A stretch of DNA of 64,000 bases from Faecousia sp. GTDB taxonomy: Bacteria > Bacillota > Clostridia > Oscillospirales > Oscillospiraceae. Location of the stretch: NCBI GenBank assembly GCA_045121575.1, contig JBGVGH010000047.1, positions 940 to 64,939 of the forward strand, given 5' to 3'. Shown in pieces: positions 3,026 to 51,994 of the stretch. The position numbers and the translations under genes were made by a program. Position 1 is the first letter of the stretch, and each line of letters opens with the position of its first letter. The notes beneath the pieces are model-generated. The model was not told the DNA's origin. It saw only the letters and a program-made list of their open reading frames with translations, and did no database searches.

Positions 3026-3078
3026 GGTTGTTCCTCCCTTTTTTCCGTTGATTTCTTTTTTCACCATCCGGTTTTATA

Positions 3079-3184
3079 GGCTCATTATAGCGCAAGCTCC
3101 CCGAAAAGAATAGCACGGATTTATTGCCAAATGTGTCGATTCTTCATCAAAGCAAAAGGAGAGAAGCCGCAGCTTCTCTCCTCC
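3079..3184 (-). repeat. Copy 1 of a ~106-bp terminator-plus-promoter module upstream of an ABC operon
   Basis: Matches 4954-5060 with about 8 substitutions and 2 single-base indels (hand alignment). On the minus strand it contains the hairpin ggagagaagc/gcttctctcc and a TATAAT (3084-3089). Confidence 0.8.
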
Positions 3185-3204
3185 AAAGGAATTTTGCGTT
3201 CCAG

Positions 3205-4920
3205 TTAGCCCTGAGAAATGGTGAACAGGGAGTAGAAATATCCCTTTTCCCCAATCAGCTCCTCAAAGGTGCCGCTTTCGACGATACGGCCGTTTTTCAT
3301 GGTAAGGATTTTGTCGTATTGCTTCAGCAGCCCTTCCTCCAGAGAATGGGTCACAACGATTCCGGTAATTCCCTCCAGCCCCAAAATGGCGCTGGATACC
3401 TGATAGGCCGTTTCCGCATCCAAGGCAGCCGTTGCTTCATCCACCAGCAGAATCTGGGATTTTTTCAGCAGGCTACGGGCGATGGAAATACGCTGCTTTT
3501 CGCCGCCGCTGAGGCCGCTTCCGTTTTCACCGCAGAGATAATCCTCTCCCTTTTTCTGAACCAGTGCCGTCAGGCCGGAAAGCTGCATGGCTTTCTCGAT
3601 TTGTTCCTCCGGGAAGGTGTGGAACATGGTAATATTGTCCCGAATTGTGGCATTGAACACAAATACATTCTGCTGGATGATGCTCTGCATCTCATAGAGG
3701 CTGGCGCTGGTGATGCTTCGCAACTCCATATCGTCATAGCAAATCGACCCATCGTAATGATGGTGCGAAGCCATCAGCAGATTCAGCAGAGTGGATTTTC
3801 CGCAGCCGGAAGCGCCAACGATGGCATACTTTTTCCCCACCTCAAAGGAGCAGTTAATGTGGTGCAGAACCGGCTTATCCTGCTCGTAGCCGAAGGAAAG
3901 GTTTTGCACAGTAATCCCCCGCTCCAACTTCTTTGCTTCCATTTGGCCTTCTTCCCGGACATTGCTATCCAGTGCGTTTGCCACTTTCTCAATCAGCGCC
4001 TTTGCCGCTTTTCGCTCTGCCAGGCAGGTGGGAATGGTGGCAATGGGATTGAGCACATAGTTCATCAGCTGCACAAAAACCATGGTGGTGCCGGCCGTAA
4101 TTCCCTTGCCGGACAGTGCCAGGTATGCGCCGAAAATAAATACCCCAATCTGCGCTGTCACCCCTGCCACCGAGCCAAACATCGACACCAGAATCTGCAC
4201 CTGTTCCCGGGTGCACTGTGCGTCTGCCAGTGCTTTGACATTCTCCCGAAAAATGCGAATCATCTGCTTTTCCGCTTTGAATGACTTGATGACCGAAAAT
4301 CCGCTGAGGCTGTCCTGGAGTGTCGCGGTATAGGTTTCATTCCGGTCCGATACGATTTTCTCCTGCCGCGCCACTTTATCACCCGCCAGAATGGATGCCG
4401 CCAGCGGAAACAGGGACAAAAGAAACGCAATCAGCGTTAATGTAGGGCTGTAGAGCAGCATCAGCACCACCGCCCCCAGAAAGACCAGCATACTGTCCAG
4501 CATGGTGAAGGTGTTGCGCAGGTATCCCTTCTCGATGATGGCCATGTCATTGGTCAGTCCCGAAATATAGGTAGACATATTTTCGCCGGAGAAAGCGGAT
4601 ATGTTTTTTCTGGTCAGCCCTTCAAAAACATAGGCCTTATACTGGGAAATGCCCTTTGCAATGAATTTGGGCTTTGAAAACAGGGCAATCAGATGCGCTG
4701 CCACCAGTACACCAATCCCGGCCAGCGTAATCCACACTAACTCCGTCAGCGTAAACCGGACGCCGTTGCCGCCAATGAGATCCAGCAGCTGCTGCAGCAG
4801 CCAGGAAACCAGCAGCGAGCAGCCCGCCGCCAGCACAGACTCGCACAGAGCAAGAGCGAAATAAAGGCTGTTGCCTTTGTAAAACTGCCGTGTAATGGGT
4901 TTGATATTCGTTTTTTTCAT
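3205..4920 (-). CDS. ABC transporter, fused permease/ATP-binding protein (type I exporter, MsbA/MdlB-like)
   Basis: N-terminal 6-TM region followed by Walker A GASGCGKST, signature LSGGEKQR, Walker B ILLVDEAT. ATG 4918-4920 follows GGGAGG. Confidence 0.9.
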   Translation of the reverse strand: MKKTNIKPITRQFYKGNSLYFALALCESVLAAGCSLLVSWLLQQLLDLIGGNGVRFTLTELVWITLAGIGVLVAAHLIALFSKPKFIAKGISQYKAYVFEGLTRKNISAFSGENMSTYISGLTNDMAIIEKGYLRNTFTMLDSMLVFLGAVVLMLLYSPTLTLIAFLLSLFPLAASILAGDKVARQEKIVSDRNETYTATLQDSLSGFSVIKSFKAEKQMIRIFRENVKALADAQCTREQVQILVSMFGSVAGVTAQIGVFIFGAYLALSGKGITAGTTMVFVQLMNYVLNPIATIPTCLAERKAAKALIEKVANALDSNVREEGQMEAKKLERGITVQNLSFGYEQDKPVLHHINCSFEVGKKYAIVGASGCGKSTLLNLLMASHHHYDGSICYDDMELRSITSASLYEMQSIIQQNVFVFNATIRDNITMFHTFPEEQIEKAMQLSGLTALVQKKGEDYLCGENGSGLSGGEKQRISIARSLLKKSQILLVDEATAALDAETAYQVSSAILGLEGITGIVVTHSLEEGLLKQYDKILTMKNGRIVESGTFEELIGEKGYFYSLFTISQG

Positions 4921-4953
4921 CCCGTTTCCTCCCTTTTCTTCCAAAATTCTATG

Positions 4954-5060
4954 GGCTCATTATAGCGCAGGCATCCCGAAAAGAATAGCACGGTTTTATT
5001 GTCAAATGTGTCGATTCTTCATCCAAAGTAAAAAGGAGAGAGGCCGCGGCTTCTCTCCTT
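4954..5060 (-). repeat. Copy 2 of the terminator-plus-promoter module
   Basis: See 3079-3184. The hairpin here is ggagagaggc/gcttctctcc, and the TATAAT complement is at 4959-4964. Confidence 0.8.
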
Positions 5061-5070
5061 TTCTCTTTGT

Positions 5071-7359
5071 TTATTGGGCAGATACCACAATTTCGCCGTT
5101 TTCCACCGTGACAGAAATGGAAGAAATGGGGCTTTCAAAGGAATCCACGATTTTCTCGCTGATGGGGTCCTCCAGTCTGCGCTGGATGGTGCGGCGCAGG
5201 TTCCGCGCGCCGTAAACGGCGGAGTAAGCCTCCTGCACCAGCATCTGGCGCACGCTCTCGTCCCAGGACAAAGACAGGCCCCGGCTCTCCAGGCTGCGGC
5301 GCAGCTCGCCCAGCATGATGTCGGCGATATTCAGGAAATTCTCCTGGGTCAGGTGGTTGAAGGTGATGATTTCGTCCACCCGGTTGAGGAATTCCGGCCG
5401 CAGGAATTCCCGCAGCGCCTGCATGGTTTTTTCCTTCACCATGTCGCTGTCGGTTCTGCCGAAGCCGACGCCTCCCACCCGACCTTCCGAGCCGGCATTG
5501 GAGGTCATGACAATGATGGTGTTTTCAAAATTCACCACCCGGCCCTGGGCATCGGTGATGCGTCCATCGTCCAGCACCTGCAGCAGCACATTCAGCACAT
5601 CCGGGTGTGCCTTCTCAATCTCGTCAAAGAGCACCACGCTGTAGGGGCGGCGGCGAATCTTCTCCGTCAGCTGCCCGGCCTCGTCATAGCCCACATAGCC
5701 GGGAGGCGAGCCAATCAGCTTGGAAACGGTATGTTTTTCCATGTACTCCGACATATCCAGGCGAATCAGGCTGTCCACGCTGTCAAACAAATCGTCCGCC
5801 AGCTGCTTGACCAGCTCTGTCTTGCCCACGCCGGTAGGGCCGACGAAAATAAAGGAAACCGGCTTTTTCTTGGGAGAAATGCCCACCCGGTTGCGGCGAA
5901 TGGCACGGGAAACCGCCTCCACCGCCTCGTCCTGTCCCACAATGTGCTGCTTCAGCCGGTCGGACAGGCCCTTAATCTGCTGATACTCCTGGGCCTTGAT
6001 TTTAGAAGCGGGAATTTTCGTCCACAGCTCAATGATGCGGGCCAGATTTTCCATGGTCACGGCAGGCTTGGGCAGCTTCTCCAGCTCCTCAATCTGTGCC
6101 GAAAGCTGCAGCAGCTTGCTGCGCACCATGGCAAGGCGCTCATAGTCCTGATTCTCCGTCTGCTCGTTGAGCATCCGCAGTTCCAGTTCATAGTCGTCCC
6201 GCTCTTTTTTCAGCTCTGCCATGCGGGAAATCTCTTTGCACCGCAGGTTCACATCGGAGCAGGCTTCGTCCAGCAGGTCGATGGCCTTATCCGGCAGGAA
6301 ACGGTCGGTAATATACCGCTCGGACAGAATGACGCACTGATAGGCGATTTCCGGCGGAATCTCCACCCCGTGGAACTGGGCATAGGCCTTGGCCACGCCC
6401 TGCATAATCTGTCCTGCCTCCTCGATGGTAGGCTCTGCCACCGTCACCGGCTGGAAGCGGCGCTCCAGAGCCGCGTCTTTTTCAATGTACTTGCGGTACT
6501 CGGCAAAGGTGGTGGCGCCGATGACCTGAATTTAGCCCCGGGACAGGGCAGGCTTGAGGATATTGGCGGCGTTCATGGAGCCTTCCGCGTCCCCCGCGCC
6601 CACCAGATTGTGGACTTCGTCGATGACCAGAATGATATTGCCGCAGGCCTTGATTTCCGAAATCAAGCTCTTCATTCGGCTTTCAAACTGGCCCCGGAAC
6701 TGGGTTCCGGCCACCAGGGCCGTGAGATCCAGCAGGAACACTTCCTTGTCCTTCAGCTTATAGGGCACATCCCCGGCGGCAATCCGCTGGGCAAGGCCCT
6801 CGGCAATGGCAGTTTTGCCCACGCCCGGCTCACCGATGAGGCAGGGATTGTTCTTCTGGCGGCGGTTGAGAATCTGGATAATCCGCTCTGTTTCCGTATC
6901 CCGGCCAATGACCTTATCCAGCTCGCCCCGCTGGGCCCGGCCGGTCAAATCCATGCAGTAGGAATCCAGGAATTTATGGGCCTTTTCCTTCTTTTTCGGG
7001 GGTTTCTCCCCTTCCGGCTGCTTTTTATGCTCCGACGGCTCCTGCTGGGCGGGCAGATTTTGGGAAGTGCCGAACAACTGATTCAGCAGCGGGAAGGTAG
7101 CCGTCTGGCTCTCCGCCTCGTCCTCGTCCGGGTGCTCCTGGTCCATTTGGCCGAACATATTGCTCATTTCATCCGAGAGGTTGTCCAAATCCTCCTCGGA
7201 GAAGCCCATCTGCTTCACCGCCTGGTCAATCTGGGGAATGCCCAGACTGCGGGCACACTTGAGGCAGTAGCCCTCGTTCAGCGTGGCGCCGTTTTCGATG
7301 CGGGTGATGAAAACAACGGCGATATTTTTCTTACATTTGGTACAAAGTTTGGGTTGCAT
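5071..7359 (-). pseudogene. ClpC/ClpA-type two-AAA+ Clp ATPase with an N-terminal CxxC...CxxC zinc-ribbon, interrupted by one in-frame TAA
   Basis: ORFs 6532-7359 and 5071-6447 are in the same frame. Reading through gives ...[46 protein letters not shown]..., and the TAA (complement of 6532-6534) sits where this family has Glu (GAA). Walker A motifs GEPGVGKT and GPTGVGKT are present. Confidence 0.8.
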
Positions 7360-40469: not shown

Positions 40470-41175
40470 ACAGCTGTGAAAAAATTTCGCCCAGGGGCTG
40501 GTGGAAAACCAAATCCGCCCGGCGGTCATAGGGGGTTTCGTCCCGGTTAATGAGCACCAGGCGGTTTCCCTGATAGTAATCAATCAGCCCCGCCGCGGGA
40601 TACACCGTCAGGCTGGTGCCTGCCACCAGCAGCAAATCCGCCGACGCAATGGCACGGATGGCCCCCTCCAGAGTTTCCGGGTTCAGCCCCTCCTCGTACA
40701 GCACCACATCGGGCTTGACGATGCCGCCGCAGGCGCACCGGGGAATGCCCCGGCTCTCTTTCACAAATTCCGCAGAGAAAAATTTGCCGCAGCGGACGCA
40801 GTAGTTGCGCAGCACCGAACCATGCAGCTCATACACCCTTTTCGACCCGGCCTTTTGGTGCAGGCCGTCAATGTTCTGGGTCACAACGGCAGAGAGCTTC
40901 CCCTCCTGCTCCCATTGGGCCAGCTTTTTGTGGGTGATGTTGGGTTCAAAGCCCAGAGGCAGCATTTTCTCCCGGTAAAAATCGAAGAAATACGCCGGGT
41001 TCCGCTCATAAAAGCTGTGGCTGATGATAACCTCCGGCGGGTAGTCGAATTTCTGGCTGTACAGCCCGTCCACACTGCGGAAATCCGGGATTCCCGATTC
41101 CGTGGACACCCCGGCTCCCCCAAAGAATACCATGCGGCGGCTTTCCTCAATCCACTGTTTCGACTTGTGTATCAT
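40468..41175 (-). CDS. cobB: NAD-dependent protein deacylase (Sir2 family)
   Basis: FFGGAGVSTESGIPDFRS, TQNIDGLH and the Zn ribbon CVRCG...CACGG. The ATG (41173-41175) straddles the left inverted repeat of the inserted element. Confidence 0.85.
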   Translation of the reverse strand: MIHKSKQWIEESRRMVFFGGAGVSTESGIPDFRSVDGLYSQKFDYPPEVIISHSFYERNPAYFFDFYREKMLPLGFEPNITHKKLAQWEQEGKLSAVVTQNIDGLHQKAGSKRVYELHGSVLRNYCVRCGKFFSAEFVKESRGIPRCACGGIVKPDVVLYEEGLNPETLEGAIRAIASADLLLVAGTSLTVYPAAGLIDYYQGNRLVLINRDETPYDRRADLVFHQPLGEIFSQL

Positions 41176-41455
41176 TGTCCAAACTAATTTCCATATCTTC
41201 CTCAATAATCGGAAGCTTGAATTTAATGGATTTTAACCACTGTCCGTTTGCCCTTCGTTCCTCGTAGACCTGAATTTCTGAAATTAACGATTCCATAATC
41301 TGACGTTTTTCCGCCTCGTCCATGACTGAATACAACTTGTCAAAGTAAATCAATACCTTGTAGATATTATCTCCGGTCAGTTTCTCCGCTTCGATTGCGG
41401 TTTTCTTCGCTCTCGCTGCGATAAGCTGGCTTTCGAATTCCTCAATCTTAACCAA
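41147..41455 (-). pseudogene. C-terminal remnant (~100 aa) of a large serine recombinase
   Basis: ...IYKVLIYFDKLYSVMDEAEKRQIMESLISEIQVYEERRANGQWLKSIKFKLPII matches the conserved tail of large serine recombinases. The catalytic N-terminal domain is absent, and the reading frame runs across the element end into host DNA. Confidence 0.7.
41174..41187. repeat. Left terminal inverted repeat (ATTGTCCAAACTAA)
   Basis: Exact reverse complement of 51230-51243. Confidence 0.9.
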
Positions 41456-41738
41456 CCGAAATAATTACATCCAGATTATAATAATCTACATCATAGACTT
41501 TTCCATCAGAGGCAGTGTAGGCAAATTTTGCCCACACTGATTCTTTTTGCAATTCGCCTTCTTTAAATATATTTCTTACGTGTTTTCCGATAACACTTCT
41601 GTCTCGCTGAAACAACTCTGCCATCTGGTCAATGGATAACCATACCGTATCCTCATCAAAGGTCGTTTCAATTTTTGCAAGACCGTCCTCTGTTGTATAA
41701 ATGATAATATTGGATTTCATATCCTCTTTAAATTCCAT
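41448..41738 (-). pseudogene. N-terminal remnant of a RhuM-family protein
   Basis: SNIIIYTTEDGLAKIETTFDEDTVWLSIDQMAELFQRDRSVIGKHVRNIF...YYNLDVIISVG then a stop. Full-length RhuM proteins continue with YRVKS... Confidence 0.7.
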
Positions 41739-42281
41739 TGCTAACCCTCTTTCCAATTTGTGCAACACCCCGTTGCACTATTTCTATGTAGCTCATTTTG
41801 AAACCCTGTTCCAAAATGAGTTTGGACAGATTTTACACGTTAATTATATCATGCAACATCTTTTGATTCAATAGTCGAAAGTGATTCCTCCGTAAAATTC
41901 TCAGTGTCTTTATCGGGAAGATTTTCCACATCAATCACAGATGCATATTTCTCGATCAAATCTGCCATCAAATTTGCAAATCCGCTCCACACGTCCTTTT
42001 CCAACTGTCCTATAAACATCAACCTCCTTGTGGGTGTGCTCAGCACCGCTCCCTTGTCTGCACACAAAAAGCCCTGCAAGGGAAATGACAACAAAGTTCG
42101 ACAACAGAACTCAAAAAACTGCCCATTTCCAATACAGAGCCTTACTACTACATTTCTATTCTTTTTTCATTTATTTGTTGTTTTGGTTGTCAGAGTGGTA
42201 AAACTCCTTGAAAACAAAGGACTTTTTAACTGCTTTTCCATGCAACCAACCGACAACACAGCCGACAATCTGGCCGACACT

Positions 42282-43679
42282 TTAGAAGGGAAGTTCCATC
42301 TGTCTGGCTTCTTCCTCTGACAATTCCACAAATCCATCCGTAGATTTTTCTTCCGTTGCATCGGTGCTGTTGTCACGTTCCCAGCCACGCTGCCTGCCAT
42401 AACTGCCAAAATATCTCGGATTGGAAAACTGCTTCCAACCTTTCACGCTATTATTCATAATCTCATTGATTTCCCTAATTTCCCATTGCTTCGGTTCATC
42501 AAAAGGATGGTTCAATGCTTCTTTATAAAGCTGCTTGGAACACACCTGTTTTCCAGTAAAATTCTCCAAATAAGCCTGTATCAGCCCTGCCTTGGTATCT
42601 TCCGGCATAAATTCCTTCTGCAGTTCCTTCAGATATTGCTCCACTTCTTTAGACAATGTCGGACGAACCTTTCCGCTTCTGTAAATCACCATCGCTTCTG
42701 CCCATAACTGATCAATATACTTACGGGATTCTGTCACATTCTCTAAAATATGAACCTCTGCTTTATCCGGATAAACCATAACAGGGAGAAAGCGTCGGTT
42801 TCCGCTTCGGTCAAGTGGCAGAAAATCCAACGTATTGGATGTACCACCAAACACACATTGACGCAGCCTGTCCGATGCCTGTTTCTCATACGGCACTTTA
42901 TAGGTTTCTTTCCTGCGACTTAAAAAAGATTTGATTTCCTCAATGCTTTTTGCATTTGCTGTGGCAATCATCTCCGACATCTCAATAATCCAATGCCCCT
43001 GTATCTTACGGAAAACATTCTCGTCATCCATCTTTTTTAGGTCATCTGAGAACCATTCATCCTTAACAGCGAGAAATTGAAAAAAAGTTGATTTTCCTGC
43101 ACCTTGACCGCCAGTCAGACAAAGCATGGTATCAAATTTACATCCCGGCTTAAAGGCTCTGCTGATTGCTCCCAACAAAAACAGTCGCATAGCTTCATAA
43201 GTGTATTCATTGATATCCGAACCCAAGAAATGGTGTAATACATATCGGATACGTTCTGTTCCGTCCCATTCCAGTCGGTTCAGATAATCTCTAACAGGAT
43301 GATATTGATTTTTGTCTGCAACGATAGAAATTGCTTTTTCAATTTTCTTTTCCACTGTCAGGCTGTACTTTTCTTCCATATAGAGAAAAAGATAATTGAT
43401 ATCCGTTTCATTCAACGCTCTGGAAGTCTTTTTCCACCAAAGTGGTTTTACAATATCGACTCTCTCCGTCATAATATTATAGCGAATCGCACCCGACAGA
43501 ATTGGATCAGACTGCAATACGGTCAGACAATTCTTGATACTGTTTTTGATGCTGCCATTCTCGTTCAGTATCAGGCTCCCTCTGACTTCTTCCACACTGC
43601 GACAGGTCTGCATTTCTCCAATCGTCTGCATCACTGCTTCCTGCGTCTCTGATGTTAAATTCTGAAATTCGTTGTTCAA
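42282..43679 (-). CDS. VirE (virulence-associated E) family P-loop primase/helicase-like protein
   Basis: DTMLCLTGGQGAGKSTFF Walker A, HWIIEMSEM Walker B-like, RRKETYKVPYEK...GGTSN...GNRRFLPV. Confidence 0.8.
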   Translation of the reverse strand: MNNEFQNLTSETQEAVMQTIGEMQTCRSVEEVRGSLILNENGSIKNSIKNCLTVLQSDPILSGAIRYNIMTERVDIVKPLWWKKTSRALNETDINYLFLYMEEKYSLTVEKKIEKAISIVADKNQYHPVRDYLNRLEWDGTERIRYVLHHFLGSDINEYTYEAMRLFLLGAISRAFKPGCKFDTMLCLTGGQGAGKSTFFQFLAVKDEWFSDDLKKMDDENVFRKIQGHWIIEMSEMIATANAKSIEEIKSFLSRRKETYKVPYEKQASDRLRQCVFGGTSNTLDFLPLDRSGNRRFLPVMVYPDKAEVHILENVTESRKYIDQLWAEAMVIYRSGKVRPTLSKEVEQYLKELQKEFMPEDTKAGLIQAYLENFTGKQVCSKQLYKEALNHPFDEPKQWEIREINEIMNNSVKGWKQFSNPRYFGSYGRQRGWERDNSTDATEEKSTDGFVELSEEEARQMELPF

Positions 43680-43933
43680 TTTTCATATTGAGCCGTATAA
43701 TACATAAGCTCCACTTGTTCAAAAGAAAAATCTTTTTCTGTTTCTTTAGGACGGTCAATTCCCGTAGAAACGCCACGGTAACAATCCCAATACACATTCA
43801 TCTTCGCTCGTTCCGTATCAATATGTTCACTATTTTCCAAATCAAAACGCCTGTCATTATGCTTTGGATTATAAGTGCCATGCTTTCCGGAACGACCATT
43901 ATGTCTGGTCAACCTCATCGACTTTTCCTCCAT
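43676..43933 (-). CDS. Small protein coupled to the VirE gene; N-terminus resembles Mob/Pre-type relaxase starts (weak)
   Basis: ATGA overlap with the VirE start. The RHNGRSGKHGTYNPKHNDRRFDLENSEHID motif recalls the HN(D/Q)R region of Firmicutes Mob proteins, but this is recollection only. Confidence 0.4.
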   Translation of the reverse strand: MEEKSMRLTRHNGRSGKHGTYNPKHNDRRFDLENSEHIDTERAKMNVYWDCYRGVSTGIDRPKETEKDFSFEQVELMYYTAQYEN

Positions 43934-44598
43934 TTCTTAAAATTTCTGATTCATCTGGTCAAAGAAATCGAAGCAGCTTTGCTGCTGTCCTGCTTCATTT
44001 ATGCGCAGGTAATACCCAGTACTAAGTGGCGAAACGCCACTGACTGGGCAAGGCTGCCGCCCTTGACCCGCACAGGGATATTGCATTCCCTGTACCCATG
44101 CACAAAGGGTTGCACCCTCTGTACTCCTGCCGAATAAACTGTCTCGTACCGGTGGCATCCGGTTCTTACAGTTCATTCGTTTTTTCAGAACTCTCCACCG
44201 GAGACTTTTGAAAAAAGGCAATGACCATCTACTATGCCACGTAGATTTTCATTGCCTGTTTGAGTATGCCGCAACTGGCACACTCGATTTGTTTTGCAAA
44301 TGAGCAAAACAAAAAGCATCAACTTTTTACAGCTGATACTCTTTGCTTTAGTCATTATTTGCCGTTCTACCCTTGATGTTTCCTTGGAGGCATATCCCCT
44401 GTGCGGTGCTGTCCAGTCTCCTTTGCAGAAGCGCTCTTTTTCATGGCGGTGTATTTCATCTTGGACGGTCATTCAATTTTTGCTCATCTCTGAACTGGCT
44501 ACATCATACAGCAAAAAATCGAAATTCCCGGATACTTTCCACTATCGAAAATTCACGCAAAAAAGCCCCCAATTTTCCACATAGAAATCCGGGGAACG

Positions 44599-44627
44599 TT
44601 GTCACTTTATTTTGTTTATGATAGAAT
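44599..44627 (+). promoter_or_regulatory. Promoter of the XRE regulator gene
   Basis: TTGTCA, 17-nt spacer, TAGAAT with an extended TG. Confidence 0.6.
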
Positions 44628-44648
44628 ATCTGCGTTAGGAGGATGCTA

Positions 44649-45461
44649 ATGAAAACTCAATTATCAATACAGGAAAAATTAGAAGATTTAAGAAAAGAAC
44701 GTAAGCTTACCCAAGATGTTGTGGCATCTGCTGTCGGGATAACCATATCTACGTTAAGTAAGTATGAAAATAAAGAAAACAAAGAATACAACATTGCCAC
44801 TCTCAACAGTCTGGCTAAATATTATGATGTTCCTTTGGAGTGGCTTGTCGGCAATACCGAAATACGAGAAGTGACCAACACACCTATCAATGAACTGATG
44901 TTAGATGATGAAACAATCGAGCTGTTAAAAAGTGGTCGTTTTAACAACCGACTTCTCTGTGAAATTATAAAACATCCAGACTTCATAAAGCTGATGACAG
45001 ATACTGAAATCTATGTTGACGGTATCGCCACCATGCAGATCAAAAATATGAATGACTGGCTGGATGCTGTCCGTTTCCAAATCATACAGCAGAAAAATCC
45101 GGATGCTAATGATTTATATTTGAAAGTACTGGAAAGCTCACATATTCAGGAAGAAGAATATTTCTTCCATACCATTCACAGTGATTGGGACAATATTGTT
45201 CGCACAATTCGTGAAAACCATCAATATGCTGTAGAGTCTGCACCGATTGAAAGACCTATGTCCAACGATAAAAAGGTTCAGCGATTCTTACAGACTCTCA
45301 AATTCAAGAGTAACCCAATCGAAGAATTCTGGCATTTCTTCTGCGACGAAATGCAGATTCCATTCGACCACCTATCTGTAGAAGAACATAAAATCATGAA
45401 GGACGTTTTCAAGCGTTCCAAACTTTTGAAAGCCTTGCCAAATCGCAGAAAAGGGAAGTAA
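44649..45461 (+). CDS. XRE-family HTH regulator with a ~190-aa C-terminal domain of unknown function
   Basis: LRKERKLTQDVVASAVGITISTLSKYEN HTH. AGGAGG lies 6 nt before ATG 44649. Confidence 0.8.
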   Translation: MKTQLSIQEKLEDLRKERKLTQDVVASAVGITISTLSKYENKENKEYNIATLNSLAKYYDVPLEWLVGNTEIREVTNTPINELMLDDETIELLKSGRFNNRLLCEIIKHPDFIKLMTDTEIYVDGIATMQIKNMNDWLDAVRFQIIQQKNPDANDLYLKVLESSHIQEEEYFFHTIHSDWDNIVRTIRENHQYAVESAPIERPMSNDKKVQRFLQTLKFKSNPIEEFWHFFCDEMQIPFDHLSVEEHKIMKDVFKRSKLLKALPNRRKGK

Positions 45462-45523
45462 AAAAGACTCACATAAAAATTCTTTTTTTGACTGACATTA
45501 ACTCCATTTTCGAAAAACGAAGC

Positions 45524-45559
45524 AAAAGGCACTAACTTTTTTGCGGTTAGTGCCTTTTG
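45524..45559. terminator. Bidirectional terminator between the XRE gene and the cargo operon
   Basis: aaaaggcactaac ttttttgcg gttagtgcctttt. Confidence 0.75.
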
Positions 45560-45569
45560 GCTTGGTCAT

Positions 45570-45926
45570 TTATTTTGTTGTTAATAAGATTCTCGCATCG
45601 AATTTGAAATTTCTTCCATCGTCTGTATAAACATCAACTTTATCACCCTCATGAGCTTTTATCGTTGCAAGCAACTGAGAAGAAATTTTTTTCTTGCCAG
45701 CTAAACTTAGAACATCCTCATAAACATCAAAAGTTATACATTCATTAATATCATAAACAAAAATCTTTACATTCAATACGGTGCCAAGATATTCTCCACC
45801 AGTAACATATGTTCCATTCCCACCGGGGTAATTGTCATATTTATACTGGTCGTAACCCTGTACTCCTTGTTTAATGTAAGTTATTCGACTTTGATGTTTT
45901 TCTATTTCAACAATTCGTCCTTTCAT
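45570..45926 (-). CDS. 118-aa soluble protein, unknown function (last gene of the cargo operon)
   Basis: GGAGGTGG RBS 4 nt before ATG 45924-45926. No TM segment and no motif I recognise. Confidence 0.6.
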   Translation of the reverse strand: MKGRIVEIEKHQSRITYIKQGVQGYDQYKYDNYPGGNGTYVTGGEYLGTVLNVKIFVYDINECITFDVYEDVLSLAGKKKISSQLLATIKAHEGDKVDVYTDDGRNFKFDARILLTTK

Positions 45927-45988
45927 TTTTCCACCTCCAGTCAATATTCTTCATTCATTAGAAAAAAAACGATTGCGGAATATGATAA

Positions 45989-47506
45989 TCAGAATCCAAA
46001 TAAACTCGCAAAACCACGAGCGAGGGATTTCACTCCGCCAACAACCGCACTGCCTACTGACTTTACAACTTCTACAGCCTTGTCACGGACTTTCTGAACA
46101 CCTTTCACAACTGTTTCAGCCACTTTAGAGCCAGCCATATAGCCTATTGTTCCGCCAACAAAACCTCCAACTGCTGCTCCAACGGGTCCCAAAACAGAAC
46201 CGATAGTTGCACCGATAACTGCTCCTTTAGTGGACGTAGCAATGCCTGCAACACAAGCGGCAGTTGTCTGTTCCATTTTGTCCAGACCCTCTTTAGCTGT
46301 CAATTCTCCTGTTGCGACTTTTCCTAAAACCTTGACATTCTCTACGGCTACAAAAGCAATGTTTGCGAATGTACTTCCCTTTGTTCCTTTTGGAATAACT
46401 TTCAATATGCCCTTTTCTGATGCAGCTTTCAATGCTCCGGCAGTCGCTGTTTTCACGCCGAAATCCGCACCCGAAACGATAGCAGTTTCAACAACTTCTT
46501 CGCTATCAATCGGCTCTCCATTCCAAACTTTAGTTGCGATTGCCATACCTGCACCGACAGCAGCACCTTGCAGACAAGCGTAACCCGTTTGTTTTCCGAT
46601 GCCGATTGCAATATCTTTAGCAATATAGTCATTCCAATCAGCATCCATGAAGTTGCCCTTTTGAGCTTGCTCTTGCAATTCCTTTGCTTGCTCTTTTGTT
46701 AAAGGCTTACTCGATATATCTCCATCTTGAATGGTGGAGGTAACGGTCTTATAGGGAAAAGCTTCTTGAACTGCCGCAACTTGCTCCTCTGGAACAACAA
46801 GAATTTGGTTGTTGTAGTTTCCAGAGTTTATCATACGAATGGTGTCCTCAGCGGTAGCACCATATTTCATCTGATACTGATGGATTCTCTTTCCTGTGGC
46901 ATCCTTGATAACTACATCAAAACCGTTTTTTGTGTAAGTTTCGCCGGGCTTTAGTGGCTGAACTTCTGCTCTCAAGCCACTACCTTTTGCCGCAGCATTC
47001 ATATTAAAAGAATTGACATGATGCTGTTCTGCAATAAAGCCATCCAAGTTCGGATTCATACTTGGTGTGATGTATCCACTTCCCTTTGTCGTAATGGTTT
47101 CGTGCATAGCGGCATTTGCACTCTTTACCGCATCATCCAAGCTCTGCAAATATTTTGCACTTTCTTGTGCTGACATTTGCGAAGTAGATTTCAAAACTGT
47201 CGAAGCAAACCAACTATCTTTGCTTCTTCCGGCTGCAATTGCTTTCTCCTGAGATACTTTCATATCTTCTGTTACTTTAAGGGAGTCGATAATCTCGGAA
47301 CTCATTTCCTTAATTTCCTCAGAAGATTTTTCTGGAAGTTGTTTTTGGAGTTCTTGGGGCAACCATTCTTCCACGGACATCTTATCCTTGGAAGAAGCAT
47401 AGCTCTCTAAAAACTCTCGCTGTATTTTAGAAATACCTTTTGCTTCTTCCTCTGACAGAACTTTTTCCGAGAAATCAAATTCATATATTTCATCTTTCTT
47501 ATCCAT
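45989..47506 (-). CDS. 505-aa protein: acidic helical N-terminus, central globular domain, Gly/Ala-rich glycine-zipper C-terminus
   Basis: Starts 8 nt after the AAA+ stop. The C-terminus is GAVIGATIGSVLGPVGAAVGGFVGGTIGYMAG, made of GxxxG repeats. Confidence 0.7.
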   Translation of the reverse strand: MDKKDEIYEFDFSEKVLSEEEAKGISKIQREFLESYASSKDKMSVEEWLPQELQKQLPEKSSEEIKEMSSEIIDSLKVTEDMKVSQEKAIAAGRSKDSWFASTVLKSTSQMSAQESAKYLQSLDDAVKSANAAMHETITTKGSGYITPSMNPNLDGFIAEQHHVNSFNMNAAAKGSGLRAEVQPLKPGETYTKNGFDVVIKDATGKRIHQYQMKYGATAEDTIRMINSGNYNNQILVVPEEQVAAVQEAFPYKTVTSTIQDGDISSKPLTKEQAKELQEQAQKGNFMDADWNDYIAKDIAIGIGKQTGYACLQGAAVGAGMAIATKVWNGEPIDSEEVVETAIVSGADFGVKTATAGALKAASEKGILKVIPKGTKGSTFANIAFVAVENVKVLGKVATGELTAKEGLDKMEQTTAACVAGIATSTKGAVIGATIGSVLGPVGAAVGGFVGGTIGYMAGSKVAETVVKGVQKVRDKAVEVVKSVGSAVVGGVKSLARGFASLFGF

Positions 47507-47514
47507 TGTTCACC

Positions 47515-49182
47515 TTATCCTCTCGAAGAATATCCTCTCAATATTGCTGAAAGCGAAGAACCAAGAGCCGAGATAGCTTGTGCTTGGGATGCTGTGGATG
47601 TAGCACTTGTTGCAGTACCTGTTGATTTGCTTTCAACATGGGAAGGTTCTACCACTTTTTTAAGTGCAGGTTTTGATGCTACCTTGTTCTCTGGATTACT
47701 TGCAGGCTTCAAATCCATATCCTTAACGGCTTCCTTGATTTCTTTGATGCGTTTTTCCAATGTACTGGAAATAGATTTAATATTCTTTTGTGCTGATTTC
47801 AAATCATCGGTCGTTAATTGTTCTCTGCCCTCAATAAAGCAACTCTCAATCGCATCTTTAACAATGGCTTCCAAGTCAGCACCATTGTAGCCACTGGTCA
47901 ACTTAACAAGAGAGATTATATCTAACTCTTTGTTCCATTTATGACGCTTTTTCAAATGAATCTCTATGATTTTTCTTCTTTCCTCATCGTTAGGGAAGTC
48001 AACATAGAACAACTCATCAAATCTACCTTTTCTCAAAAACTCTGCCGGAATTTTTGAAATGTCGTTTGCAGTAGCAACAATGAAAACTGTATTTTCCTTT
48101 TCCTGCATCCAAGTCAAAAACTGTCCAAACAAGCGTGTAGTAACATCACTGCCACCACCGGAACTTCCGACACCGGAAAAAGCTTTTTCGATTTCATCAA
48201 TCCAAAGCACACATGGGCTGATTGCTTCTGAAAGCTTCAACGCCTTTCTCATATTTTCTTCGGATTCGCCAATATACTTTCCGAGCAAGCGTCCAACATC
48301 AAGCCTTACCAGCGGAATTTCAAACAGTTTAGCCGTAGCCTTTGCTGCCAAACTCTTTCCGCATCCTGGCATACCGACTATCATGATTCCTTTTGGAATA
48401 TCAACTCCAAATTTCATGGCTTTATCTAATTGATTGAAAATCCTCTCTTTTTTATAAAGCCACTCTTTCAGATTTTCCAAACCACCAATATCTTCAATGC
48501 TCTCGTTTACGGGAATCATTTCAAGCAGTCCGGCTTTTTTTATCAACTGTTCCTTCTGGCTCAATATCAAACGCTTATCATCAAAATCTAAGCAACCACC
48601 GTCTTGATATGCCAAATTTAAGATTTGCTTTACTTGAAATTCATTTAGTCCCTTGAAAGAAAGAGCAATCTCGCTCATGACATCATCAGTCACATCAATT
48701 TCTAAGTCCTTCGTGAAGCCTATCATGATGTTCTTGATTTCCGACACCGATGGCAACGGCATATCAAACACTGTGATCAAATCTTCAAGCTCATCTGGAA
48801 TACAAAGTTTGCTTGAAACAATAAAAACAGATGCGTTGTAGCTCTCATTATATAGATTTCGCTCTGCTATGTATTTCAACAAAGACACGATTTCTGGTTT
48901 GTCCAACTGACTATGAACATCTTTTAAGACAATGAACATAGAATGTTCATATCCATCATCTTTAACAAGGTTAAGGAAGTTATACAAATCGCACTCTTTC
49001 ATCGTGGATTTTGTCTTAAAGTCCACAATACCTAAACCATTGTTATATTCTACAACTTTCCTATTATCTGTTATATCCGTGATAATTTCATCAATTACTT
49101 TGAAATCAAAGTGATTGATGTAAATGATTGGGTATAAGGCATCAATATATGAAGCCATTAAATCCCTTGCGCTATTCTTCAT
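47515..49182 (-). CDS. Classical AAA+ ATPase, Ycf46-like (degenerate N-terminal domain plus one active AAA module), Ser/Thr-rich tail
   Basis: Walker A GMPGCGKS, Walker B VLWIDEIEK, SRH/Arg finger ATAN...LRKGRFDE. The N-terminus ALYPIIYINHFDF resembles the Ycf46 start (recollection). Start reset to ATG 49180-49182 after GGAGG. Confidence 0.85.
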   Translation of the reverse strand: MKNSARDLMASYIDALYPIIYINHFDFKVIDEIITDITDNRKVVEYNNGLGIVDFKTKSTMKECDLYNFLNLVKDDGYEHSMFIVLKDVHSQLDKPEIVSLLKYIAERNLYNESYNASVFIVSSKLCIPDELEDLITVFDMPLPSVSEIKNIMIGFTKDLEIDVTDDVMSEIALSFKGLNEFQVKQILNLAYQDGGCLDFDDKRLILSQKEQLIKKAGLLEMIPVNESIEDIGGLENLKEWLYKKERIFNQLDKAMKFGVDIPKGIMIVGMPGCGKSLAAKATAKLFEIPLVRLDVGRLLGKYIGESEENMRKALKLSEAISPCVLWIDEIEKAFSGVGSSGGGSDVTTRLFGQFLTWMQEKENTVFIVATANDISKIPAEFLRKGRFDELFYVDFPNDEERRKIIEIHLKKRHKWNKELDIISLVKLTSGYNGADLEAIVKDAIESCFIEGREQLTTDDLKSAQKNIKSISSTLEKRIKEIKEAVKDMDLKPASNPENKVASKPALKKVVEPSHVESKSTGTATSATSTASQAQAISALGSSLSAILRGYSSRG

Positions 49183-49184
49183 GC

Positions 49185-50063
49185 TTATACCTCCATATAT
49201 AACAATTCGAAAGAAGCATTGTTGCACTGGTATTCCAATCCATCGAACTTAACTAACTTGTCGTTTACATCAGTATTTCCAAGCTTCTCGTAGAAATTGC
49301 CTGCATTTTTGATAAATGTTCCAGAAGCAATGTTAATGACCATAAGTTTAACTTCAGGTCTTTCAATAGGATCCCACATAGCTTGAGTGTTTCTCTTGAC
49401 GATTTTCAAATCATCGCCAAGAATTTCTTTTGCTTTGCTTGTTGTTAGCAGGGAAGATTTAACACTTGTATAAATCTTTGCGTTTGCTTCTTCGCCAATC
49501 CAAAACTTTCGAAAAGCATCTCTTGTTAAAATCGCAAAAAGCGCTTTTGGTGCAGATACAAGTAGGCGAAAATACAGTTCGTAATGGTTTAATTCAAATA
49601 AACCAAAATACTCTCTTTCCATCTGAATCGCATCAGCTTTCAGAACCGCCATATTGTCTTTGTTTTCTTCCATGTGCATAACAAGAGCTGTGTAACCGGA
49701 ATGGTAATCGTCAATTACCTGTTTCTTACCGAAAGCATTTTCTTTATAAATAGCGTTTAATTCCTTTTCTTCATCCAAATAGGAAAGGATACCGATTGCT
49801 TTTTCAATCTCGCTATCGTCTAAATCTACAACCTCAAAAATCTTAACAAGCTCTGTAATAATTGCTTTTTTATCTGCATTTTTGTCTATTGCAGAAACCT
49901 TCTCATATTCCTTCTCGTAACCACGAACATCTAACCAGCGAAGCAGGAGACCATTATCAAAATATTTGAGCATATCTTCCATTGAAAAATGTTCCTGCAT
50001 ACCCTCAATATTTCTTACTGGATAATTGTCCAGAATCAAATTAAACTTAATTGTTTTAGCCAT
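49185..50063 (-). CDS. 292-aa protein, unknown function (cargo operon gene A)
   Basis: AGGAGG lies 8 nt before ATG 50061-50063. The stop is 2 nt before the AAA+ ATG. No motif I recognise. Confidence 0.65.
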   Translation of the reverse strand: MAKTIKFNLILDNYPVRNIEGMQEHFSMEDMLKYFDNGLLLRWLDVRGYEKEYEKVSAIDKNADKKAIITELVKIFEVVDLDDSEIEKAIGILSYLDEEKELNAIYKENAFGKKQVIDDYHSGYTALVMHMEENKDNMAVLKADAIQMEREYFGLFELNHYELYFRLLVSAPKALFAILTRDAFRKFWIGEEANAKIYTSVKSSLLTTSKAKEILGDDLKIVKRNTQAMWDPIERPEVKLMVINIASGTFIKNAGNFYEKLGNTDVNDKLVKFDGLEYQCNNASFELLYMEV

Positions 50064-50120
50064 TGCCAAATCCTCCTAAAATATTATTTACATTTTACCA
50101 TCCCATATAGACACCATCTG

Positions 50121-50336
50121 TCATTCCGATGATTTATCTGCTTTTCTCCAATTTTTATATTCGCCTGTTGTAATACGTCCATCAATAGGCTTGTTAACAT
50201 CCTTAGGTATTGCCCAAGATCTCCCGAATTGAACCGCACCAGGAATTTTTCCAGTAGCACAAAGTGTCCTAACCCAGCGTGGTGTCAATTCCCATTTCTC
50301 TGCCACTTCTTTTACAGTGTAAAAGTCTTTATTCAT
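50121..50336 (-). CDS. Excisionase/MerR-like small HTH DNA-binding protein
   Basis: YTVKEVAEKWELTPRWVRTLCATGKIPGAVQFGRSWAIP, the Xis-family HTH pattern. GAGGTGGTGG RBS. Confidence 0.7.
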   Translation of the reverse strand: MNKDFYTVKEVAEKWELTPRWVRTLCATGKIPGAVQFGRSWAIPKDVNKPIDGRITTGEYKNWRKADKSSE

Positions 50337-50397
50337 TATCCACCACCTCACTTCTGGATTTTATACCATTCTTTCTCATTGGAACAAATCATATATA

Positions 50398-50426
50398 TTA
50401 TATTCCCCAAAAGGAATAATGTCAAT
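50398..50426 (-). promoter_or_regulatory. Consensus promoter of the cargo operon
   Basis: Minus strand TTGACA (50421-50426), 17-nt spacer, TATAAT (50398-50403). Confidence 0.7.
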
Positions 50427-50500
50427 GTTACATCAAAAAGTTTGGACTTCATACAACAAAAACTGGACTCCACAAACATCTGTGAAATCCAGCTCTTTGA

Positions 50501-50869
50501 TTATACATATATCATTTCACGGAGCACAATTTCTTCTGCCCTGTTACGAATGAAATTCATACTCTGAATCCATTTCCACTGATCATTCTTCTTCAATTCC
50601 TCAGTTACAGATTCCGCTTTTTTCATCTGCTCGATGATAACCTCTAATCTGTTCTGCGCCTGCTCATTTATATCAGCAAGATAAGTCCAAAGCTGGCAGG
50701 TCAAAATCAAATCATCATACTGCATCGGTTTATGTTCCTTCAAGTAATCTCGGTGCATTCGTCCAAAGCGACCAATCATTCTGTGTTCCTCTGGAAGTTT
50801 TAAATCCGGAATATAGTAATCGCCTACTAAAACATAATCAATGCCGTTTTCTGTTATTCTTTCTTTCAT
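50501..50869 (-). CDS. tnpV: TnpV-family transposon protein
   Basis: GDYYIPDLKLPEE..IGRFGRMHRDYLKEHKP...YLADINEQAQNRLE...MNFIRNRAEEIVLREMIY matches the TnpV pattern of Tn4451-type elements. Confidence 0.8.
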   Translation of the reverse strand: MKERITENGIDYVLVGDYYIPDLKLPEEHRMIGRFGRMHRDYLKEHKPMQYDDLILTCQLWTYLADINEQAQNRLEVIIEQMKKAESVTEELKKNDQWKWIQSMNFIRNRAEEIVLREMIYV

Positions 50870-50941
50870 GCGTTTGTCTCCTTTTCTTCACTCATTTTTG
50901 TTAAAACTTGAAAGTTCAGAGACAAGTTGTATTCATTATGG

Positions 50942-51187
50942 TTAAATCATCCCAAAGTGCTTCAAAGCATCTACGATGGCAGCTTCTTTATCTGCAGGAC
51001 ACTTTGGCTGTCTGGAATCCTCGGATTTCGGCTTATTGTAATTCTCTCGCTCGATAATGCCATGTTTCTGCTTTACCTGTGCGATATACAGGCTACTTAC
51101 TTTCATGCCTGTATTTTCCATGACATAAGCCTTAATTTCCTCGTAAGTGGCTTTCTTTTCAGCATCGGTCAAATCCAGCTCGTCCAT
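50942..51187 (-). CDS. Element-encoded 81-aa ORF, now in frame with trmD
   Basis: MDELDLTDAEKKATYEEIKAYVMENTGMKVSSLYIAQVKQKHGIIERENYN... This sequence type is common next to TnpV in such elements (recollection). No SD sequence precedes its ATG here. Confidence 0.45.
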   Translation of the reverse strand: MDELDLTDAEKKATYEEIKAYVMENTGMKVSSLYIAQVKQKHGIIERENYNKPKSEDSRQPKCPADKEAAIVDALKHFGMI

Positions 51188-51994
51188 ATTCAATTCGACT
51201 TCGATATGATTAGTCGATTTTAGTTTGGACAATAAACACACCGTCTCAGCGTTTGCAGCATCCTCCGCCTCCATTTCACGCAGTAGCTTCTTGTCCTGCT
51301 TGGAGGACAAATCCAGCTTTTCATACATATCGGGGCGGCGGGCTCTGGTGCGACGCAGGGCCTGCTTCCGCCGCCACTGGTTCACCTTTTCATGGTTTCC
51401 AGACAGCAGAATCTGGGGCACTTCCCTGCCGTGCCAGACGGCGGGGCGGGTATACTGGGGGTATTCCAGCAGGCCGTTATAGTGGCTTTCATCCTCGAAG
51501 CACTCCGCATCCGCCAGTACCCCCGGCACCATGCGGCACACCGCGTCTGTGACCGCCATGGCGGCGATTTCGCCGCCGGTCAGCACAAAGTCCCCCAGGG
51601 AAATTTCTTCGTCCACACACTCGTCAATGAACCGCTGGTCGATGCCCTCGTAATGGCCGCAGACCAGCACCAGATTCTCCATCCGGCTCAGGCGGATGGC
51701 GTCGGCCTGCTTAAAAGTATGGCCGCAGGGGGAAAGATAGATGGTATGCACCGGGCCGCCCGCCTCGTCGCACACCGCCTCCCAGCAGCGGTACAGCGGG
51801 TCGGCGGTCATCACCGCGCCCCGTCCGCCGCCGTAGGGATAGTCATCGGTCTGGTTCTGCTTGTTGGCGGTGTAATCCCGAATCTGGTGGGTTTCGATGC
51901 GGATGAAGCCCCGCTCCTGGGCCCGGCCCAGAATGCTCTCGCTGAGCACATCCCCCAGAGTTTCGGGAAACAGGGTCAGAATGTCAATTCTCAT
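50942..51994 (-). CDS. trmD: tRNA (guanine37-N1)-methyltransferase TrmD, native stop lost, 96 element-derived codons appended
   Basis: MRIDILTLFPE..., GHYEGIDQR and LTGGE motifs. The native part ends at about 51244; the frame continues through the right inverted repeat to the TAA at 50942. Confidence 0.85.
   Translation of the reverse strand: MRIDILTLFPETLGDVLSESILGRAQERGFIRIETHQIRDYTANKQNQTDDYPYGGGRGAVMTADPLYRCWEAVCDEAGGPVHTIYLSPCGHTFKQADAIRLSRMENLVLVCGHYEGIDQRFIDECVDEEISLGDFVLTGGEIAAMAVTDAVCRMVPGVLADAECFEDESHYNGLLEYPQYTRPAVWHGREVPQILLSGNHEKVNQWRRKQALRRTRARRPDMYEKLDLSSKQDKKLLREMEAEDAANAETVCLLSKLKSTNHIEVELNMDELDLTDAEKKATYEEIKAYVMENTGMKVSSLYIAQVKQKHGIIERENYNKPKSEDSRQPKCPADKEAAIVDALKHFGMI
51230..51243. 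repeat. Right terminal inverted repeat (TTAGTTTGGACAAT)
   Basis: Exact reverse complement of 41174-41187. Confidence 0.9.

Follow-up and report, generated by a model that had tools for sequence, protein, structure and literature searches.

Among the described systems closest to the locus analysed here is Iet, in which the AAA+ ATPase IetA is accompanied by the subtilisin-like protease IetS. The two are said to have been first described as an AAA-ATPase/protease toxin-antitoxin pair stabilising plasmid pTiC58, and were reportedly recognised as a defence system by Gao et al. in 2020. Another point of comparison is Ycf46, a cyanobacterial and plastid AAA+ protein of unclear function, which has about 500 amino acids (aa) arranged as an N-terminal domain and one C-terminal AAA+ module. 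To our knowledge, Ycf46 is a stand-alone conserved gene with no link to the partner genes described below, and we found nothing in open-access papers that ties it to operons of this type. The locus in question is an operon in a 64,000-nucleotide (nt) stretch of contig JBGVGH010000047.1 of Faecousia sp. (the window). Its core consists of a gene of no recognised family (gene A), a gene encoding an AAA+ ATPase, and a gene encoding a 505-aa protein with a glycine zipper. We propose that these three genes form a horizontally spread conflict module, most likely of the anti-phage abortive-infection type; our confidence in this reading is evenly balanced, and its defence part is drawn from the genomic context.

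The three core genes follow one another on the minus strand of the window: gene A (292 aa, 49185-50063), the AAA+ ATPase gene (555 aa, 47515-49182) and the glycine-zipper gene (505 aa, 45989-47506). We surveyed one genome per GTDB species, seeding the search with an alignment of eight gene A sequences, and searched the six-frame open reading frames (ORFs) of the 80 resulting loci with the window proteins. The loci are spread over ~12 phyla, and are found in Bacillota, Bacteroidota, Pseudomonadota, Campylobacterota, Synergistota, Cloacimonadota, Cyanobacteria, Kiritimatiellota, Ignavibacteria, Spirochaetia and one Methanofollis archaeon. In 75 of the 80 the AAA+ gene comes next after gene A; the remaining five are contig ends or gene fragments. 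A glycine-zipper gene flanks this pair in 71 of the 75 loci, either directly after the AAA+ gene (48 loci) or directly before gene A (23 loci), and those upstream of gene A encode a shorter form of ~360 aa. The co-occurrence of the three genes outside this genome, which the initial annotation of the window had left to be searched for, is thus widespread, and the linkage across loci defines the unit as gene A, the AAA+ ATPase and the glycine-zipper protein.

The organisation of the pair is also conserved at the level of its junction. The distance between gene A and the AAA+ gene lies within -8 to +4 nt in 71 of 77 junctions, with modes at +2 and -4, which shows a predicted translational coupling of the two genes across many phyla. 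Since the same junction (+2 or -4 nt) recurs across independent loci, the close packing of the genes is not a matter of chance. At the same time, the gene A sequences of Megasphaera, Peptoanaerobacter, Lachnospiraceae and Peptostreptococcus share 77-100% identity, and from such sequence comparisons the distribution of the module appears clearly patchy and horizontal. Gene A is almost absent from viruses: it was found in none of 50,697 GenBank phage records and in one of 2.9 million IMG/VR contigs. Relatives of the AAA+ protein do exist in phages, but are more distant (30-36% identity). One of the side observations of this survey concerns the Streptococcus satellite phage Javan368 (positions 2607-7190), where a distant full-length relative of the ATPase (31% identity, 89% coverage) is flanked by proteins of 573, 154 and 160 aa; neither the profile of gene A nor that of the zipper protein matches them, and this type of ATPase may here be part of a different module. 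Another is the tandem arrangement at five loci (L008, L028, L039, L056 and L068), where a further and diverged copy adjoins the module; L068 has two gene A paralogues before one AAA+ gene.

In the window, the core is embedded in one compact minus-strand transcription unit that spans 50,425 to 45,516 and holds five close-packed genes (45570-50336). The first gene encodes a 71-aa protein of the HTH_17 family (50121-50336, minus strand) and the last one a 118-aa protein (45570-45926, minus strand). A sigma-70-type promoter, TTGACA-17-TATAAT (50397-50425, minus strand), lies 61 nt upstream of the ATG of the HTH_17 gene; it matches 12 of 12 consensus positions and is the sole perfect match in the 7.5 kb from 44000 to 51500. 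At the other end, between the 118-aa gene and a convergent gene of the XRE family, a hairpin (45516-45567) with a 13-bp perfect stem plus an extension (-23.9 kcal/mol, z = -5.87) is followed by a T-run and has the features of a bidirectional intrinsic terminator. The ATG of gene A at 50063 is preceded by AGGAGG. Its TAA (49187-49185) is separated by 2 nt from the ATG of the AAA+ gene (49182-49180), whose own GGAGG is inside the last codons of gene A. The gap is 8 nt between the AAA+ and the 505-aa genes, and 62 nt between the latter and the 118-aa gene. The tight packing of five genes, the consensus promoter and the terminator shared with the XRE gene had all been described in the initial annotation, and the coordinates and junctions are confirmed. 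One value needs correction: the 51-nt gap given between the HTH_17 gene and gene A is true only for an upstream TTG at 50069, and becomes 57 nt for ATG 50063, the start used by the homologues (MAKTIKFN).

The ATPase is the component with the clearest relatives. It matches Pfam AAA (1.2e-29), AAA_lid_3 and phrog_8638 (7e-115); its best PDB matches are to the D2 domain of CDC48/p97 (4e-63), and its best NCBIfam models are PAN (2e-39), CDC48 and FtsH. Judged from its sequence, it is a classical-clade (Cdc48/PAN/FtsH) protein, and the motifs of a putative classical unfoldase are all present: Walker A GMPGCGKS (270-277), the pore loop KYIGE (302-306), Walker B VLWIDEI (325-331, with D329/E330), ATAN (370-373, with the sensor-1 residue N373) and RKGRFD (384-389, with R387). 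The Walker A K276 and Walker B D329/E330 are kept in 78 of 78 orthologues, and Y303, G305, N373 and R387 in 75-76 of them. With all these motifs conserved, the ATPase should be able to hydrolyse ATP and thread polypeptides. Its N-terminal domain of ~225 aa has no match in Pfam. In its layout, with this domain ahead of one AAA+ module, the protein is similar to Ycf46, to which the initial annotation had likened it. The IetA models match the AAA+ core only (residues 249-487; 4.8e-26 for PADLOC and 8.4e-23 for the NCBIfam model IteA), and orthology with IetA/IteA is not supported by NF042959, against which the protein scores 81.1 bits, over residues 249-478 only, for a cut-off of 510. The C terminus of the protein is a site of variable appendages. 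Typical orthologues have ~500 aa, and the copy in the window ends in a lineage-specific, low-complexity tail of 55 aa. Elsewhere, an orthologue (L020, 1129-3489) bears a C-terminal DUF5050 beta-propeller (2.7e-65), and those of L010, L048, L065 and L066 have C-terminal extensions of 130-210 aa that belong to no family.

Gene A belongs to a large family, with 803 close relatives and 1,120 clusters at 50% identity among 1.84 billion representatives, for which we found no match in Pfam, NCBIfam, PHROGs, PADLOC or the PDB sequences, even when 35 diverse members were scanned; the single-sequence and the profile searches of the PDB were both negative. Its AlphaFold2 model (mean predicted local distance difference test score, pLDDT, of 87) comprises a beta-hairpin and short helices (residues 1-75), a helical hairpin of ~50 residues, more helices and a C-terminal beta-sandwich, and has no Foldseek match at E < 1e-3 in the PDB or BFVD. 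The absence of a recognised family, noted from the start for this protein, therefore extends from the sequence libraries to the fold search. We also considered that the C-terminal beta-domain could be a cyclic-nucleotide-binding roll, and rejected this because the Foldseek values (probability ~0.7, TM ~0.3) are insufficient. In alignments of 35 and 62 diverse homologues, the invariant or near-invariant columns cluster in the first 60 residues (49884-50063, minus strand), i.e., in the segment MAKTIKFNL..D..PVR..E.L.E.F...D.L.YY..GLL.RWL.VRGY, and the C-terminal half is variable, at times with inserts. We propose that gene A encodes an adaptor or a sensor of the AAA+ ATPase.

The third component is proposed to be the effector. 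Residues 428-464 of the 505-aa protein (46115-46225, minus strand) match the Pfam family Gly-zipper_Omp (PF13488) marginally, with 25.7 bits for a cut-off of 25, and the match is repeated by the homologues. This glycine-zipper hairpin also matches PF13441 and C19orf12, coincides with the hydropathy peak of the protein (KD19 = 1.67), and contains eight glycines (G428, G432, G436, G440, G443, G447, G451 and G452) that are invariant or near-invariant among 16-42 homologues. Only glycine-zipper families were matched across Pfam, NCBIfam, PHROGs, PADLOC and the PDB, and the earlier view that the protein has no recognised family stands for everything beyond the zipper. The N-terminal part is helical and conserved, with a GRSKxSW motif; the C-terminal half, also helical, is rich in glycine, and its last residues, SLFGF, are conserved as far as Escherichia coli. 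The short form of ~360 aa is homologous to the long one in its N- and C-terminal parts (hhalign probability 100%, E = 2e-41) and differs from it in having no central insert.

This insert (~residues 150-270; 46697-47059, minus strand) is a candidate PD-(D/E)xK-like domain. It contains six invariant or near-invariant residues (E160, H163, N168, D197, Q212 and K214). The structure model of the whole protein is poor (mean pLDDT of 47.6, with 60-80 in the central segment), but the order of elements in the model of the insert, alpha-beta-beta-beta-alpha-beta, would fit a PD-(D/E)xK core with E160, D197 and Q212-x-K214. The best Foldseek matches of this low-confidence model include the restriction enzymes EcoT38I (probability 0.96, E = 0.097), PaqCI and MspJI, with E ~0.1-0.4 and none below 0.01, and Tim23 is among the weak matches of the zipper part. 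A profile search of the PDB with the insert was negative, as were hhalign comparisons with HamA and with the nuclease domain of Card1. We thus regard the PD-(D/E)xK fold, which is suggested by a model, as a lead and not as a result. The initial annotation stated that the set contained no nuclease; given the topology and the E/D/QxK residues this was premature, although the fold matches that could contradict it are not significant.

A variant of the system is found in E. coli. It was located by a nucleotide search, in which a short part of the AAA+ gene matched, followed by profile searches of the locus, and is present in 3 of 5,426 complete genomes, including the chromosome of ZF34 (L100, 5518-16290) and a plasmid of EC2001 (L104). 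Insertion sequence (IS) elements interrupt it in both of these copies, which are the ones examined. The zipper homologue is directly upstream of the AAA+ gene and has 38% identity over 500 aa, the same central motifs and the SLFGF end; it matches no PADLOC family. The AAA+ protein (715 aa) has 40% identity over 490 aa, including the N-terminal domain. There is no gene A in this variant. The possibility that it is hidden as a fusion in the extra 215 aa at the C terminus of the ATPase was rejected, since hhalign of gene A against this extension was negative. The cluster reads, in order, vWA, zipper protein, AAA+, a CARF/Card1-like PD-(D/E)xK protein (PADLOC model CARF4, 1.4e-265), a small vWA-like gene, PP2C, Ser/Thr kinase and MkoA-like helicase, and adjoins brxL of a bacteriophage exclusion (BREX) system. 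The presence of the zipper-AAA+ pair without gene A suggests an invariant output pair with an exchangeable front-end.

The neighbourhoods of the three-gene module make it a candidate for a role in defence. In Megasphaera lornae the module is amid a type II restriction-modification pair, Hachiman (HamA and the helicase), a C5 methylase and Abi_2. On a megaplasmid of C. butyricum it is preceded by a WYL gene and followed by two methylases and a restriction enzyme; in Lachnospiraceae GmrSD_N and WYL genes precede it, and in Ligilactobacillus ruminis a helicase and GmrSD are upstream. Of 143 ORFs, the closest neighbours of the module in 70 loci, 14-17 are matched by WYL models; the other matches include Bunzi, SoFic, PDC-S39, PDC-M09A, type II methyltransferases, mads and LeoA/dynamin. 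A WYL-like gene lies directly upstream of the module (same strand, ending within 1.5 kb) in 13 of 58 evaluable loci, those of the archaeon and of Cloacimonadota among them, and within 10 kb in 26 of the 58. Other copies are near relaxase, recombinase or IS genes. The module therefore often adjoins WYL regulators and known defence genes (restriction-modification, Hachiman, GmrSD, Abi_2, Bunzi), a qualitative association of the kind that the initial annotation had proposed to look for. In one Lachnospiraceae locus (L086, 12979-15863), three further genes of 435, 83 and 440 aa, with no Pfam match, are packed after the module on the same strand, and may be an extension of it or a separate neighbouring system.

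The small genes that flank the core are less tightly associated with it, and the copy in the window has HTH_17 and XRE genes in place of WYL. The HTH_17 protein, of the MerR/excisionase type of DNA-binding proteins (Pfam HTH_17, E = 2.8e-8), scores 20.6 bits against TIGR01764 'excise', under its cut-off of 28.8. In L091 and L030 a homologue immediately precedes gene A; in L023, L026 and L027 one lies 1.7 kb ahead of it, beside a homologue of the XRE gene. This recurrence in diverged copies of the module suggests that the protein may regulate the module rather than act as the excisionase of the element, as it was first read; since its family does include excisionases, a role in the element backbone is kept as an alternative. 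The XRE-family protein (272 aa, 44643-45461, plus strand; Pfam HTH_19 and HTH_3) is encoded convergently with the operon; in L091 a homologue (3.8e-40) is likewise convergent with the module, and others lie upstream of gene A in L023, L026 and L027. Both regulators may belong to the module in this sub-lineage, or else to the backbone of the element. The 118-aa protein, counted in the initial annotation as part of the set, has no family match in Pfam, NCBIfam, PHROGs or PADLOC, as had been noted, and no homologue of its gene exists among ~100 related loci; it is carried solely by the identical element. In Megasphaera, where the 505-aa protein is very close (phmmer E = 1e-296), its position is taken by an unrelated gene of 112 aa. 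It is thus not part of the conserved module, and we rejected it as a fourth component or an immunity gene.

The operon is the cargo of a mobile element of ~10.1 kb (41150-51248). Its right end (~51,248) was set by aligning its junctions with those of another copy, and its left end is approximate, being placed by the GC profile and by a recombinase remnant. The element has a GC content of 0.39, compared with 0.57-0.58 in its flanks, in line with the ~10-kb AT-rich element reported in GC-rich DNA; the operon was also said to be its most AT-rich part, which is barely so (0.383 versus 0.384-0.403 in the rest of the element). The remnant at the left end (102 aa, 41147-41455) corresponds to the last ~100 aa of a 558-aa recombinase, and because of this truncation we regard the element as decayed. 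It overlaps a fragment of RhuM (106 aa, 41448-41768), an N-terminal piece that matches the PADLOC candidate defence family PDC-S05 over the first 93 of 330 model positions (2.9e-46) and is truncated. TnpV (50501-50869, 2.3e-44) is intact. The carrier could be thought of as a Tn4451-like serine-recombinase mobilisable element, for which TnpV is present but an intact large serine recombinase was not found at the element end. The start of a VapE-like primase/helicase gene (465 aa, 42282-43679, 4.9e-71) overlaps the stop of an upstream ORF of 85 aa (42282-43933 for the two); these are replication genes of the element, apparently intact despite the loss of the recombinase.

The block from TnpV to the XRE gene (TnpV-HTH-A-AAA+-505-118-XRE) was found identical on at least 23 metagenome contigs. 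On one of them (L092, the copy used for the right end) the identical element end adjoins a tRNA U5-methyltransferase gene, also at its 3' end, instead of trmD. The presence of the identical element at two different host genes indicates past mobility. With TnpV intact, the recombinase cut to its last ~100 aa and a second insertion site known, the description of the operon as cargo of a decayed mobile element is upheld. In the window, the trmD ORF (50942-51994) has 350 aa, the TrmD domain ends at residue 221, and the last ~102 codons are element DNA; since the frame runs into the element, the insertion made a C-terminal extension or fusion. The 118-aa gene, TnpV, the VapE-like gene and the recombinase remnant are outside the module.

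How the three proteins could work together can be sketched from these features. Gene A would dock on the ATPase through its conserved N-terminal 60 residues, and its variable C-terminal beta-domain would serve as a sensor or as a recruiting adaptor. Upon a trigger from an invader, the hexameric unfoldase would remodel the latent, soluble zipper protein, possibly starting from the SLFGF tail, and the freed zipper would insert into the membrane and collapse the membrane potential. In the long form only, the PD-(D/E)xK-like insert may add a nuclease activity, i.e., DNA cleavage. The HTH_17 and XRE proteins here, and WYL proteins elsewhere, would set expression. We put forward, tentatively and as something we hold to be somewhat doubtful, that this is a phylogenetically broad immune system not described so far, in which a Cdc48-like unfoldase, steered by gene A as a sensor or adaptor of new fold, mechanically turns a latent zipper protein, which may or may not carry a nuclease domain, into an effector that kills through the membrane, and whose zipper-ATPase pair is a portable output module that in Enterobacteria is wired to CARF, vWA, PP2C and kinase proteins.

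Several observations weigh against a defence role of this kind. The hydropathy of the zipper is moderate (the KD19 peak given above), although such a value would be as expected of a protein that stays soluble until it inserts into the membrane. The assignment of a nuclease fold to the central insert is not significant, and because the model of the 505-aa protein is poor, the passage from a latent soluble form to a membrane form relies on sequence features only. An ATPase that activates the effector and one that restrains it appear equally compatible with the sequences. For an immune gene, the AAA+ gene is unusually well conserved (E = 1e-180 to 1e-240 across phyla). Many neighbours of the module are ordinary genes, and the association with defence is qualitative. 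Finally, we found no description of the module in open-access papers, among which a recent one could be missed (the libraries end in 2023-2026).

The restraining role of the ATPase leads to the strongest of the other explanations, a toxin-antitoxin or addiction module that stabilises the carrier elements, to which we assign a modest probability. The zipper protein would be the toxin and the ATPase, helped by gene A, an ATP-dependent antitoxin that keeps unfolding or extracting it, such that a cell would die once it lost the element or ran low on ATP; the explanation overlaps with defence, since such modules often also abort phage infection. It would account for the association of the module, here and on many metagenome contigs, with a TnpV/serine-recombinase element, and of other copies with the relaxase, recombinase or IS genes mentioned above; the likeness of the AAA+ core to IetA, with the plasmid-stabilising history of the latter, and a tight translational coupling that suits a stoichiometric neutralising pair, fit it as well. 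Yet many copies have as neighbours the restriction and Hachiman genes of a chromosomal island, where no backbone of an element is visible; regulators of the WYL type are characteristic of inducible defence operons and not of addiction modules; and simple addiction does not call for a third protein that is conserved and has a variable domain resembling a sensor. Alternatively, the module could serve the element itself, in transfer, entry or surface exclusion, or replication control. Its position between TnpV/HTH and the VapE-like primase, a weak TraT-like match of one zipper homologue (0.0015) and the excisionases of the HTH_17 family point in this direction, but the same three genes occur elsewhere with wholly different flanks and no element genes, in phyla with different repertoires of mobile elements and in one archaeon, and the module matches no conjugation, replication or recombination family (Pfam, NCBIfam, PHROGs, PADLOC). 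We consider this highly unlikely.

A patchy distribution counts against a housekeeping or stress function, where a Cdc48/FtsH-like machine would extract or remodel a membrane protein, e.g., in membrane-stress repair, with no role in conflict. A classical-clade unfoldase of very high sequence conservation would be at home there, and glycine zippers are also found in ordinary outer-membrane and stress proteins, as the names of the Pfam families tell. This reading is nevertheless very unlikely in our view given a horizontal distribution with 77-100% identity across different families, the location on mobile elements and in variable islands, the tandem extra copies at some loci, the absence of the module from nearly all the 5,426 E. 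coli genomes, only three of which have the variant, and a composition foreign to the host (GC of 0.38 versus 0.57). The glycine zipper also raises the possibility of an exported interbacterial toxin of the LXG/type VII kind, in which the ATPase and gene A would be chaperones of export and the small gene downstream would confer immunity. Glycine-zipper C termini are found in the membrane-depolarising secreted toxins TspA, Ssp6 and Tse4, UniRef labels one homologue (P0275) 'LXG domain-containing', and here, as in Megasphaera, the gene after the 505-aa one is small and variable. However, Pfam finds no LXG domain in that homologue or in the other scanned homologues at E <= 0.05, no secretion-system genes were seen in the neighbourhoods examined, the module is present in phyla without type VIIb secretion, and near-identical 505-aa proteins precede unrelated small genes, unlike what is expected of a cognate immunity gene. 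An exported toxin is thus very improbable.

We return to the conflict module. In general terms it would be an NTPase-driven, effector-bearing defence or toxin operon, two of whose three components come from large unannotated families. If defence were confirmed, it would be a widespread system whose trigger step is the unfolding of a protein by a Cdc48/p97-type machine, a principle that has not been reported in this form for known bacterial immune systems and that echoes the biology of p97 in eukaryotes; we know of no description of membrane-depolarising effectors or zipper toxins being activated by an unfoldase. Two large protein families, at present unannotated, would also gain a function. 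From the E. coli variant it would seem that effector and ATPase form an output module that can be reused with various sensing front-ends. The cassette, which with its own consensus promoter measures 4.9 kb, is small enough for direct cloning and testing.

The comparison with catalogued systems yields partial likenesses. In PADLOC-DB v2.0.0 (2023), gene A and the 505-aa and 118-aa proteins have no family match at E <= 0.01, such that no described system is matched by them, as had been suspected. The new E. coli systems reported with DefensePredictor include P-loop NTPases, and the main text of that article mentions nothing that matches the module (PMC13092281). Membrane remodelling of the PspA/ESCRT type and the MoxR-vWA ternary systems were set aside because their ATPases and partners are different (PMC11237479, PMC7159879). 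The initial annotation had noted the lack of a protease, HORMA or cyclase partner, and none was found in the Pfam, NCBIfam and PADLOC scans. The module resembles Iet in having a classical-type AAA+ ATPase beside a potentially toxic partner in a compact mobile operon, and the AAA+ core aligns to IetA; it differs in that the match is to the generic core only, the N-terminal domain of the ATPase, gene A and the zipper protein having no counterpart in Iet, and in that no IetS-type protease, nor any peptidase family on any protein of the operon, was found in these three libraries. With Cap6 (TRIP13/Pch2) and HORMA of the cyclic-oligonucleotide-based anti-phage signalling system (CBASS) it shares the principle of an AAA+ remodeller and an adaptor-like protein controlling an immune output. 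The ATPase is, however, of the Cdc48/PAN/FtsH-like group, its match to the PADLOC model of TRIP13 is marginal and partial (1.1e-4), and neither a HORMA nor a cyclase family turned up when the operon and the element were scanned in this way, nor a nucleotide-activated effector in the operon.

The best sequence matches remain Cdc48/p97/VAT, PAN and FtsH, with which the ATPase has in common the Walker A and B motifs, the Tyr-hydrophobic-Gly pore loop and the arginine fingers; a separate adaptor that acts on the N-terminal domain, as in these machines, is also the model proposed for gene A. In contrast to them, the ATPase of the module has a single ring, an N-terminal domain outside Pfam families, neither a protease domain nor a proteasome partner, and is encoded by an accessory mobile gene. 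As for the output, the proposed permeabilisation of the cytoplasmic membrane by a small hydrophobic or glycine-zipper element is common to RexAB, to the transmembrane effectors of CBASS, Pycsar and Thoeris, and to the toxins TspA, Ssp6 and Tse4. The homology with these proteins does not go beyond the zipper motif, and the long form of the module is set apart from all of them by its extra, nuclease-like insert.

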